From positions 2,592,001 through 2,656,000 of the forward strand of contig CBDDFZ010000001.1 of NCBI GenBank assembly GCA_965227515.1: 64,000 bases of DNA, read 5' to 3'. Shown piece by piece: positions 45,636 through 47,665 of this stretch; position 1 is the stretch's first letter, and each line of letters begins with the position of its first letter. The stretch comes from Alphaproteobacteria bacterium (GTDB taxonomy: Bacteria; Pseudomonadota; Alphaproteobacteria; CALKHQ01). The notes beneath the pieces were generated by a model that saw only the letters and a program-made list of their open reading frames with translations, did no database searches and had not been told where the DNA came from. The position numbers and the translations under genes were made by a program.

Positions 45636-46508
45636 ATGCAAACCGAAACCATGACCCAAACGACCGCCGCCTCGCCCGGACCAAACGCGGCGAGCGCGTT
45701 GCCGGCCTGGGCCGCCAGCCTGCCGGACGATATCCGCGCCCTGGTCGCCAAGAAGAAGTGGCCGGATATCGCGGCTGCCCTGCGGTCATACCAGCATGTC
45801 GAGCGCCGGCTCGGCGAACTGAAGCGCAAGGCGCTGGTGGAGGTGCCGGCGGAGGATGCCGATCCGGCGGCGTGGTCGGCGCTGTTCGACAAGCTCGGCC
45901 GGCCGGCCCGGCCCGATGACTACGATCTTGCCGGCATGGAGGCCGGTGAGGCGGAAGAAACGCCTGCGATGACCGCGTTTCGCCAACTCGCCCACGACAT
46001 TGGACTCAGCGCGACCCAGGTGAGCGCGCTCAGCGGTTGGTGGCAGGGCTTGGTCGAGGACTGCCGCGCCTTGCACGAGGACGATGCGGATGCGGATGCT
46101 GCGGCCGCGGCCGTATCCGTCGAGGAGGTGCTGCGCCAGCACTGGGGCGCCGACTATGAGCGCCGCCGCGCCATGGCCGAGCGCGCCTACATGCAGTTCG
46201 CCGACCCGCGCGTCGGCATCGGCGACCGTGGGCTCGCCGCGCTGGAGGAACTGAGCGACGCCGCCGCGGTGATGGACATGCTCGCCGACATCGGCCAGGC
46301 GATGAGCGAGGACGTGCGGGTTGGCGGCGAGGGTACTGTCGACTTCGGCCTGTCTCAGGACGACGCGCGCAGCCAGCTTAGTCAGCTCAAGCGCGACAAG
46401 GCGTTCATGGACGCCTATCTCGACAAGCGCCACCAGGACCACGACCGCGCCGTACAGCGTGCGCGGGCGCTCAACCGCATCGCCGCCGGCGTCGACCCGC
46501 ACGGCTGA
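45636..46508 (+). CDS. Capsid assembly scaffolding protein (podovirus-type)
   Basis: [52 protein letters not shown]. Confidence 0.7.
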
Positions 46509-46588
46509 CGCTTTCGCGGCCCGCATTGAACCCTCCCGCCGCCAGTTGCGACCCCATGAGTGGAGCAACTGGAGGGTGGGAGGCGATC

Positions 46589-47665
46589 ATGAGCTTTGCG
46601 GCGAAGCTGGATCCTAAATTTTCGACCAAGGTGCTGGAGTCCGTGTTCCCAGACCCAATTATTGGCGGGTTCGGGGCGCAGGAAATCCACGGCACCGAGA
46701 ACAAGGACATCATCTGGGGCGATGATGGGCCGACCGCGGCGGGCCCGTTCTGGACCATTCGCGGCAATCACGCCGACATCCTGTACGGCCATGGCGGCGA
46801 CGACACCATGTATGGCGAGCACGGCGCCGACACCCTGTTTGGCGGCGAGGGCGCCGACCATCTCGATGGCGGCACCGGAAACGATTTTCTGGATGGCGGT
46901 GCCGGCAGCGACAATCTGTTCGGTGGTGCCGGCAACGACCTGATATTCGGCGGCGACGGCATCGACAACCTGCATGGCGAGGCTGGCGACGACAGCCTGT
47001 TCGGCGGGGACGACTTCGATTGGATCAACGGCGGCGCCGGCGATGACTGGATCGATGGCGGCGACGGCAACGACTATCTGATGGGCGAGGCCGCCGGCGA
47101 CCTGGACCACGGCGACGACATCATCTACGGCGGCCTGGGCGACGACGAACTGCGCGGGCGCAGCGGCAACGACAGCCTGTTCGGCGGTGTCGGCAACGAC
47201 GTGCTGAAGGGCGAGTTCGGCGAGGACTATCTGTCCGGCGGCGATGGCGACGACATCCTGTACGGCGGCTATGACGGGGCCGACATCGCACCGACCGGCA
47301 GCTACACCGACGGCTGGGAGATCGCGGTCAAGCTGGACGACGGCAACGATGTGCTGGATGGCGGGGCCGGCAACGACCTGCTGATCGGCGGCGGCGGCGC
47401 CAACATCTTGACCGGCGGCAGTGGCGCCGACGGGTTCGCCCTCGACAACTACATCTCCAACCTGTCGGCGGTGCCGGACTACTTCCAGCCCAACATCATC
47501 ACCGACTACAGTTGGTCAGGCGACGGCGACAAGATCGAAGGCCACCACGCGGTCAGCGTCGGCGGCAACACCACCCACGTCTATGCCGACGACGACCAGT
47601 TGCTGTTCATCCTGACCGACCACGACCTCGCGACCGATGGCATCCACCTGGTCTGGTTCGGGTAG
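46589..47665 (+). CDS. RTX/haemolysin-type Ca2+-binding repeat protein (probable T1SS substrate)
   Basis: Many GGxGxDxLx nonapeptides, no Sec signal peptide, GGAGG SD. Confidence 0.88.

Follow-up and report, generated by a model that had tools for sequence, protein, structure and literature searches.

A podovirus-derived gene set divided between two chromosomal loci in an alphaproteobacterium: a candidate gene-transfer-agent-like element

A 64,000-nucleotide (nt) stretch of an alphaproteobacterial chromosome (assembly GCA_965227515.1, contig CBDDFZ010000001.1, positions 2,592,001 to 2,656,000; hereafter the window, to whose whole length all positions below refer unless a contig is named) holds a compact plus-strand run of phage-derived genes at 40585-46508, recognised by open reading frame (ORF) calls and family matches. 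This run, locus 1, encodes a two-part terminase, a portal and a scaffold, and ends where a major capsid gene would be expected. The genome that holds the window (G000; 5.52 megabases (Mb) in 2 contigs, 99.67% complete, with C1 the chromosome contig) carries a matching set of capsid and tail genes, locus 2, far downstream on the same strand. By their family matches the two loci together appear to be one gene set derived from a BPP-1/HTVC010P-like podovirus, in which the capsid gene has not been lost and in which the genes recognised are structural, lysis and regulatory only.

Locus 1 and the junction behind the scaffold gene

The features of locus 1 are collected in Table 1. Its T7-type portal is the single match of that type across the genome, and the piece read from its ATG also matches a solved portal (PDB 8ck0_A, 1e-58). 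In 16 records of Pelagibacter podophages, the 'putative capsid assembly protein' shares 25-29% identity with the scaffold protein, whose gene lies between the Bbp19-like gene and the capsid gene in pelagiphage HTVC100P. The GC content of the element (0.69-0.705) is like that of its surroundings or slightly higher, and none of the ORFs scanned beside the two loci in G000 was recognised as an integrase, replication gene or repressor.

Table 1. Features of locus 1 and its borders (window positions).
Feature	Position	Strand	Evidence or remark
LexA-type box, GTTCGTTTAATGTTC	40547-40561		perfect GTTCN7GTTC
CtrA-type box TTAAN7TTAA	40553-40567		perfect; overlaps the LexA-type box
DUF6456 protein (GafA/GafZ family), putative late-gene activator/antiterminator	40585-41121	+	PF20057 E 6.7e-12
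113-amino-acid (aa) small-terminase-like ORF	41348-41689	+	homology to the C-terminal part of a 260-aa protein of sister-genus genome G001
TerL-N (large terminase, ATPase part)	ORF 41275-42504; probable GTG start 41692	+	Terminase_6N positions 1-152, E 3.5e-18; phrog_31467 E 4.1e-44
TerL-C (large terminase, nuclease part)	42506-43249	+ (+1 frame)	Terminase_6C E 6e-19; phrog_5653 E 3.8e-27
REP-like palindrome	43274-43349		between TerL-C and 71-aa ORF; ~30-bp stem, -76 kcal/mol
71-aa ORF between terminase and portal	43422-43637	+	ORF list; partly conserved in G001
T7-type portal (Head-tail_con)	43684-45342; longest ORF from GTG 43432	+	PF12236 E 5e-129; phrog_332 E 8.8e-144
Bbp19-like small head-module protein (Phage_Bbp19)	45339-45632	+	PF25181 E 1.1e-18
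Scaffold (capsid assembly) protein, 290 aa, final gene of locus 1	45636-46508	+	phrog_3742 E 3.2e-37
Spacer with break point, 80 nt	46509-46588		homology to G001 ends at scaffold stop
RTX calcium-binding repeat protein, 358 aa	46589-47665	+	PF00353 (HemolysinCabind) E 2.6e-45, 7 stretches
Prolyl oligopeptidase (S9), host gene bounding locus 1	47669-49810	-	Peptidase_S9_N E 1.3e-72; Peptidase_S9 E 1.8e-60

The first-pass annotation, made from the window's letters and ORF list, had proposed that no capsid gene follows the scaffold, that an RTX gene stands in its place and that no capsid or tail remnant is visible there. Gene calls and family matches confirmed the first two points, and the third was borne out for the window as a whole: tblastn searches of the genome for capsid, head-decoration, tail tubular A and B, internal virion and fibre proteins gave zero window matches at E <= 1e-3. 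After a spacer of exactly 80 nt, the RTX gene begins behind a GGAGGG Shine-Dalgarno-like run. Its product has no Pfam domain besides the repeats, no toxin or enzyme domain was found in it, and it falls below every curated NCBIfam cut-off (43-110 bits against 500-2000). The gene is missing from this position in G001, which belongs to the same family as G000 but to another genus, and is best seen as the first host gene past the break, outside the conserved element. No plus-strand terminator-like site was detected in 40300-47800, so that read-through from the phage-derived operon into the RTX gene is possible. Contigs of four public runs show only that ~96% identical relatives carry locus 1, the spacer and the adjoining RTX gene; contigs of relatives at ~96-97% identity cover both sides of the junction and one is given as spanning 46365-46585, yet no single listed contig bridges 46505-46560. 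Direct repeats common to the DNA downstream of the scaffold and upstream of the capsid did not rise above chance (best 11 nt, E 0.09), and the sole tRNA in the window (892-965) lies ~40 kilobases (kb) from locus 1.

It had also been remarked that all genes upstream of the junction look intact. The remark needs one correction, in that the large terminase consists of two ORFs, as it does in relatives; the junction was read directly, with the TerL-N stop codon TGA at 42502-42504 and the TerL-C start codon ATG from 42506. A two-ORF terminase was likewise found in G001, in the family genome G003, in the Kiloniellaceae genome G043 and at the related locus L019. The two parts lie 3.2 kb apart in G003 and share a frame with a stop between them in G043, and at four loci from metagenome-assembled genomes (MAGs; L017, L023, L024 and L036) TerL-C has moved behind the scaffold, kilobases away from TerL-N. 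Since relatives carry the split terminase too, it is a family trait rather than damage, and PHROGs keeps the two parts as separate families (phrog_31467 and phrog_5653). TerL-N, whose homology to relatives begins at ~41827, is 80% identical at the amino acid level to its counterpart in G001, 79% to that in G003 and 64-72% to those of Kiloniellaceae genomes, and TerL-C is 67% and 70% identical to those of G001 and G003. Pelagiphage HTVC100P was considered as a further holder of the split terminase and rejected, its terminase and 196-aa ORF being unrelated to TerL-N and TerL-C. Two more TerL-N/TerL-C pairs occur in G000 outside the window (C1:1756184-1757607, plus strand, and 3335810-3334387, minus strand); each is 61% identical to the window's pair, is also split in two ORFs and has no T7-type portal nearby, and these are probably other prophages with the same two-gene terminase.

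The 113-aa ORF preceding TerL-N resembles a 260-aa protein of G001 (BLASTP 44% over 62 aa, E 6e-5; tblastn 43% over 95 aa). The N-terminus of the G001 protein looks like a helix-turn-helix (HTH) and matches the small-terminase families phrog_51 and phrog_641 (9e-6 and 3e-5), and for its residues 1-142, the HTH part, tblastn found no counterpart in window positions 40000-42000. Loss of this DNA-recognition domain from the small-terminase-like ORF would suit unspecific packaging, which we offer as a lead only. Between terminase and portal, the palindrome of Table 1 has copies at ~169 places in the genome and its bin showed very high multi-contig depth in unrelated metagenome runs, which together give it the appearance of a REP/MITE-like host repeat; a T-run behind it is absent. 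The 71-aa ORF that follows gave a tblastx match of 62% over 29 aa at the equivalent position of G001, and BLASTP against a long G001 ORF on that stretch returned no match.

Capsid and tail genes at locus 2 and the regulatory features of both loci

The first-pass annotation had suggested that the genome be searched for a capsid gene and tail tubular genes with the same regulatory motifs, and that search located one of each. The capsid is the single genome match to phrog_3437/PF19821 (C1:2952070-2952942, plus strand, E 1.3e-78); just behind it on the same strand lies the 1 genome match to tail tubular A (phrog_394, E 1.8e-61), and tail tubular B (phrog_376) has two partial matches on a single 691-aa frame, of which the stronger reaches E 1.4e-140, so that all of these matches fall within C1:2952070-2958799. 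With the scaffold stop at genome position 2,638,508, the capsid gene starts 313,561 nt downstream. All families of the contiguous BPP-1/HTVC010P-like morphogenesis module are present in G000, with their order broken after the scaffold.

Locus 2 extends over C1:2952070-2966278, where 23 ORFs were scanned for domains, and a LacI regulator and an ABC transporter lie upstream of it. It opens with the capsid, a 160-aa head protein, three ORFs of no known function and the tail tubular A and B genes, continues with an internal virion protein (phrog_418), ORFs of 166, 218 and 230 aa and a fibre with a T7-tail-like N-terminus, and ends with a Laminin_G_3 protein (p260), a 163-aa ORF (p163), an amidase with a peptidoglycan-binding domain, a 109-aa ORF (p109) and, on the opposite strand, an IS481-like transposase. 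This DDE transposase (C1:2966637-2967845, minus strand) closes the locus and has 4 genome copies of 100% aa identity; a G001 homologue (78% at the nucleotide level) stands at an equivalent distance behind the fibre gene of that genome. In sequence searches against solved structures the capsid weakly matched T7-like cyanophage capsids (E 0.003) and the 160-aa head protein weakly matched a virion protein (E 0.011), and NCBIfam models run on 25 element proteins gave nothing useful besides the RTX repeats and a weak AmpD-type amidase match. A 2.7-kb insertion (C1:2953625-2956062) between the 160-aa head protein and tubular A holds ORFs of 246, 176 and 344 aa, for none of which a G001 counterpart or family was found; p246 and p176 are 30% identical paralogues.

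Both loci carry LexA-type sites. GTTCN7GTTC, which we take to be the alphaproteobacterial LexA consensus, occurs in perfect form 68 times in the G000 genome, and TTAAN7TTAA, presumably CtrA-type, 22 times. The two overlapping boxes upstream of locus 1 lie 18-38 nt before the first possible start of the DUF6456 gene (40585) and ~60-80 nt before its recorded start (~40630; 163 aa on record). Locus 2 adds two more perfect LexA-type boxes, one within the 75-nt spacer that separates tubular A from B, so that 3 of the 68 fall within ~20.6 kb of the element against 0.25 expected. In G001, for which 388 kb were read for motifs, two of the 7 perfect LexA-type boxes flank the DUF6456 gene; G001 also has a divergent HTH-S24 repressor gene, which G000 is without. 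The capsid promoter region (C1:2951700-2951780) includes TTGACA, 17 nt and TATGGT, has the words GAACATAT and TGATCAAA in common with the spacer before the 71-aa ORF (window 43400-43425), and, like that spacer, has a LexA-type box with one mismatch. A further feature ~290 nt ahead of the capsid gene, a stem-loop whose core is GGGAAAGACC, is kept in G001.

The DUF6456 gene, sole of its kind in G000, scores above the Pfam cut-off (46.1 against 26.3 bits; 43.1 bits in the genome search), and the same Pfam model finds matches in a Caulobacter control genome. Its AlphaFold2 (AF2) model, built with 24 relatives, has a pLDDT of 78, and in an exhaustive structural alignment all of the 20 best rows place residues ~94-163 on sigma region 4 domains at Z 4.6-6.5, values that are modest for a helical domain; the antiterminator Q21 (6jnx_P) follows at Z 4.3. 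Foldseek gave no match for the model at E <= 0.001, nor did the sequence match any solved structure. The protein is thus modelled as having a C-terminal, sigma-region-4-like DNA-binding fold. In the cited passages of earlier work, GafA is annotated as a DUF6456 protein (PMC9638019, PMC9765227), and Caulobacter GafY and GafZ are presented as the counterparts of its N- and C-terminal domains, with GafZ the antiterminator of the gene transfer agent (GTA) cluster (PMC11150451; preprint 10.1101/2024.11.20.624540).

Age and distribution of the split

Comparison of the junction with relatives, which had also been proposed, was most informative for G001, an independent assembly. Protein and nucleotide homology to G000 ends at the scaffold stop there too, and different DNA follows: metabolic genes, among them those for an ABC transporter and an arabinofuranosidase, that have their G000 homologues on the second replicon (75-85% aa identity). 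The G001 capsid gene lies 18.3 kb past the scaffold on the same strand, with host genes between. Between the two genomes, locus 1 proteins are 80% (TerL-N), 67% (TerL-C), 67% (portal), 70% (Bbp19), 43% (scaffold) and 66% (DUF6456) identical, and those of locus 2 are 79% (capsid), 71% (head protein), 63% (tubular A) and 67% (tubular B) identical. From DUF6456 to the fibre N-terminus, 15 of the 15 genes with a G001 match are open and no stop or frameshift interrupts any of them; two alignments each contain a single stop, which in that of Bbp19 marks where the shorter G001 ORF ends and in that of the internal virion protein (ivp207) precedes the G001 ORF. The proportion of synonymous differences (pS, by the NG86 method) of core genes is 0.34-0.43 against a host median of 0.39 (interquartile range 0.35-0.44; 88 host orthologue pairs), with full saturation at 0.64 for this codon usage; NG86 is crude on genes rich in GC3, and equal pS fits co-divergence without proving it. 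Core-gene omega (0.30-0.65) is inside the host range at equal aa identity, the host medians being 0.48, 0.41 and 0.33 for the 55-65, 65-72 and 72-80% identity bins. In addition, G001 C2:0.4-22.4 kb is collinear with G000 C1:2.5417-2.5609 Mb, and the element lies 9 kb from this shared host block in G001 and 72 kb from it, inverted, in G000. The shared break, the open ORFs, the host-like pS and the shared host block speak against both a recent truncation and two separate lysogeny events; they fit one element that would have been split already in the common ancestor of both genera and under purifying selection since. We considered whether a single large gene had broken up into p218, p230 and the fibre gene of G000, as a 1119-aa ORF in G001 might suggest, and rejected this: the matching pieces change frame in G000, G002 and G003, which makes the G001 ORF the odd one, and this was not counted as decay.

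Two other family genomes, G002 and G003, are fragmented (~340-350 contigs; 96-97% complete). Across the four family genomes, tubular B was found in 4/4, capsid and TerL-N in 3/4 each and the portal in 2/4; in G003, a single contig carries the genes from capsid to p230 and breaks off 19 nt before the capsid gene. Beyond the family, related loci were gathered by their portal, and 30 were scanned, of which 25 had a scaffold match. The expectation of the first-pass annotation that the capsid gene directly follows the scaffold holds for 13 of these 25, with the capsid match starting within 450 nt; of the rest, two have only TerL-C between and one has another order, six have no capsid within the 8.6-8.7 kb examined downstream, and in three there was too little downstream sequence. 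All of the genomes reached through portal loci have the capsid family (5/5) and TerL-N (5/5). The Kiloniellaceae-type genomes keep everything on one strand, with 13-20 kb between the scaffold and the capsid behind it (4/4) and 11-16 kb between TerL-N and the portal that follows; G043, for example, has the order TerL-N, TerL-C, 10 kb, portal-Bbp19-scaffold, 15 kb, then capsid, tubular A, tubular B, internal protein, fibre and homologues of p163 and p109. Most genes in these 10-15 kb gaps belong to no Pfam or PHROGs family, the remainder being a few Asn-synthase-like, MotA/ExbB-like and function-less PHROG matches, and for that reason the loci were not counted as proof of domestication; the Kiloniellaceae elements may be prophages with cargo islands or domesticated sets. 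Judged from gene order across these loci, the scaffold-capsid junction is a place where this element family opens up.

Other junctions also hold additional genes. In the MAG loci L023 and L024, insertions of 4.5-6.4 kb between Bbp19 and scaffold include a 470-aa protein with a PBECR1 nuclease domain, and a 944-aa cadherin-domain protein and a 771-aa protein lie between TerL-N and portal. Three Kiloniellaceae loci (L016, L021 and L033) have a conserved opposite-strand block upstream of the portal with two or three Asn-synthase/QueC-like genes of 497-639 aa, together with MotA/ExbB-like (251 aa), 206-aa and 171-aa genes, which may be a defence-type island between terminase and portal. Elsewhere in the window, a 2411-aa protein with a two-partner secretion (TPS) domain of the exoprotein type (30892-38127, plus strand) is preceded ~100 nt upstream by another of the 22 TTAAN7TTAA sites (30794). 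Behind the junction, also on the plus strand, lie a 489-aa regulator with HTH_3, Peptidase_M78 (IrrE-like) and ScfRs domains (52062-53531), unrelated to the element and only superficially like a phage repressor/antirepressor pair, and a 1103-aa protein with SAM, adenylate/guanylate cyclase, AAA_16 and TPR domains (53708-57019), which matches phrog_25255 end to end (E 1.3e-155) and has a STAND-like signalling or defence architecture.

Interpretation, alternatives and comparison with known systems

We give a probability of about 50% to the reading that loci 1 and 2 form an endogenised, SOS-controlled, two-locus, podovirus-derived GTA-like element, whose particles we infer would carry host DNA. 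The first of the options in the first-pass annotation, a multi-locus GTA with its capsid and tail genes elsewhere, has accordingly stood as regards the position of those genes and the LexA boxes beside them, and its particles remain a matter of inference. Under such a scheme, DNA damage would cause LexA to leave the promoter at 40547-40561, and the DUF6456 factor would be made together with terminase, portal and scaffold and would activate or antiterminate both loci in the manner of GafA with RcGTA and GafYZ with CcGTA. With the help of the scaffold, capsids would then assemble on the portal, the two-part terminase, with a small-subunit partner that is without the N-terminal HTH, would fill them by headful with any DNA at hand, and the amidase would free short-tailed particles.

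Viriforms, the class to which GTAs are assigned, are characterised in the cited passages of PMC9662315 by proteins derived from caudoviricetes, mostly random host DNA in the particle, endogenisation often at several loci, incomplete packaging of their own genome and mostly vertical inheritance. Here the genes occupy two loci with host genes between them and a REP-like host repeat inside locus 1, and sequence homology to particle proteins is clear for portal, terminase, scaffold, capsid, tubular A and B and fibre. Vertical inheritance is suggested by host-like pS and the shared synteny block, from one genome pair only. With regard to self-packaging, the gene set spans ~334 kb in G000 against the 34-35 kb genomes of free relatives; a set of that extent exceeds a capsid of this type, so that by geometry, following GTA/viriform logic, the particles could not propagate the element.

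Several observations weigh against this reading. The geometric argument fails in G001, where the span is only ~41 kb. Both halves have been seen in only one genome pair (two genomes) of the family: the portal was found in neither G002 nor G003, G002 gave no TerL-N match and retains only the genes from tubular B to fibre, and on a second contig of G003 thioredoxin-domain and LCCL-domain genes separate TerL-N from TerL-C, with a RidA-like gene and no portal behind, an arrangement that could be further dispersal or decay. As these two assemblies are fragmented, absence of the portal block from them is not established. In G000 the large internal virion (ejection) proteins have no detectable counterpart, the only ORFs in question being of 166-230 aa, in comparison with 711, 490 and 857 aa in HTVC100P and 571 aa in L019. 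No G001 homologue was found for the distal genes p260, p163, amidase and p109, and the six distal ORFs of G001 matched no Pfam family and included no recognised endolysin. Evolution is rapid in the small ORFs that follow tubular B (omega 0.4-0.95), and the CtrA-type site is not kept in G001; the crudeness of the pS estimate and the modest structural scores of the DUF6456 model belong here as well.

Many of the same observations would be expected of a defective prophage in slow decay, one that had lost its early genes and been cut in two by host rearrangements and is now either functionless, with visible lesions still to come, or kept only in part. This is a possible explanation, if a somewhat unlikely one. 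It accords with the lack of a recognised integrase or replication gene among the ORFs scanned beside either locus, the four identical transposase copies, one of them at the end of locus 2, and the lineage-specific insertions (p246/p176/p344, the REP copy and the host genes between TerL-N and TerL-C of G003), as well as with the portal not found in G002 and G003, the undetected large ejection proteins, the small-terminase-like ORF without HTH and a distal lysis region not common to G001. Yet at a pS of ~0.39 unconstrained genes of 550-680 codons would not remain open in both lineages, and all 15 are open; omega is inside the range of host genes of equal identity, and the LexA boxes and the regulator gene are conserved. 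Nor does the genome fit the outcome that the first-pass annotation had named as pointing to simple decay, namely capsid and tail genes at this position in relatives and none anywhere in the strain, for the capsid gene is in the genome.

The two loci might instead serve different co-opted functions rather than one particle, locus 2 as a killer or adhesion kit or a source of single proteins and locus 1 in packaging or defence. Genes of locus 2 are the more widely found in the family (capsid in three genomes and tubular B in all four, against three for TerL-N and two for the portal of locus 1), and the loci lie 18 to 314 kb apart. However, none of capsid, portal, scaffold and terminase is known to serve a purpose without the others, portal and capsid are each single-copy and alike in their divergence from G001, and the uneven counts involve the fragmented G002 and G003; we regard separate functions as improbable. 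Still less credible is a satellite-like or defensive module that would apply a portal, scaffold and terminase of its own to capsids supplied by an infecting helper phage, the second option raised in the first-pass annotation. Locus 1 by itself does hold packaging and portal genes and no capsid gene, and satellites, capsid-less or capsid-forming, are a known kind of element. The same genome nevertheless contains the cognate capsid and tail genes, equally diverged from those of G001, with no second portal or capsid of this type; the ORFs scanned at locus 1 include no recognised integrase or primase/replicase, no att-type repeat exceeds chance, the only tRNA of the window is far off, and in both genera the locus has the shared host block nearby. 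The abrupt end of phage homology at the scaffold stop could be attributed to a truncation that this strain underwent recently or to a faulty assembly. Either can be rejected, as the independent assembly of the sister genus has the same break with different DNA behind it, contigs of ~96% identical relatives cover both sides, and G000 is a 99.67% complete genome in 2 contigs.

If the GTA-like reading is pursued, the element could tentatively be regarded as a new, independently domesticated GTA lineage that arose from a BPP-1/HTVC010P-like podovirus with a T7-type portal, not from an HK97-type siphovirus, and is distinguished by a GafZ-family, sigma-4-like factor under SOS control, a two-gene terminase, an HTH-less small subunit and a gene 'archipelago'. 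By a similarly speculative extension, the scaffold-capsid and terminase-portal junctions of that archipelago would have taken up 10 to 314 kb of other genes, and this in two alphaproteobacterial families or more, that of G000 and the Kiloniellaceae among them. To our knowledge, the genetically defined GTAs (RcGTA/CcGTA type, BaGTA and BhGTA) derive from long-tailed phages, and we know of GafA/GafYZ regulators only with the RcGTA type. A full-text literature search returned no description of a podovirus-type GTA gene set in the portions of text it covered, which is not proof that none has been published. Should the reading hold, prophage finders and GTA finders alike would miss such elements, because each half resembles a truncated remnant. 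In practice, a 'missing capsid' is best sought across the whole genome before decay or satellite models are invoked.

Among known systems, the gene order is closest to that of BPP-1-like/HTVC010P-type podophages, which run from terminase, portal, Bbp19-like and capsid assembly genes to capsid, tubular A, tubular B, internal virion and fibre genes. Free podophages and Burkholderiales prophages differ in being contiguous and in having large internal virion proteins, whereas the G000 set is cut after the scaffold and is without early genes; the pelagiphage terminase, moreover, is unrelated to that of the element. Phage-inducible chromosomal islands (PICI) and their capsid-forming counterparts (cf-PICI) likewise hold a partial morphogenesis gene set and cannot build a complete virion from one locus. 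These satellites differ by their integrase, replication and helper-sensing genes, none of which was recognised among the ORFs scanned in the G000 element, and by moving as a unit, and the remaining structural genes of G000 are in the same chromosome rather than in a helper. Tailocins (R- and F-type pyocins) are also phage structural genes kept by the host without a replication module and induced by DNA damage, but they have lost capsid, portal and terminase; the G000 element keeps all three, which argues for DNA-filled heads.

BaGTA of Bartonella offers a parallel, by description, as a domesticated, multi-locus, phage-derived system whose loci are tied by a processive antiterminator; it differs in its phage ancestry and in being coupled to run-off replication. 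Its antiterminator, BrrG, is said in the cited part of a preprint to resemble GafZ, GafA and Q21 (10.1101/2024.11.20.624540). The element of G000 agrees with RcGTA and CcGTA in having endogenised structural genes at several loci (five loci and about 20 kb for RcGTA in the cited passages; PMC9662315), a regulator of the DUF6456 family to which GafA and GafYZ belong, no recognised integrase or replication genes and, as far as one genome pair suggests, vertical inheritance; the dedicated GafA or GafYZ factor of those agents acts with host regulators, according to the cited passages (PMC9638019, PMC9765227, PMC11150451). In place of CtrA, quorum-sensing or RogA control, it has SOS (LexA) boxes, with its sole CtrA-type site not conserved, and the RcGTA tape-measure equivalog NF058675 was not found in G000. 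RcGTA and CcGTA are HK97-type, siphovirus-like head-tail clusters, in contrast to which the G000 element, as far as its genes tell, is podovirus-like, with a T7-type portal, Bbp19, a BPP-1/HTVC010P-like capsid, tubular A and B and a split terminase. Ultimately, if the GTA-like reading is correct, a phage would here have been domesticated independently into a GTA-like device, one that stands beside the RcGTA type under a regulator of the GafA/GafZ family and so would widen the scope of that family.

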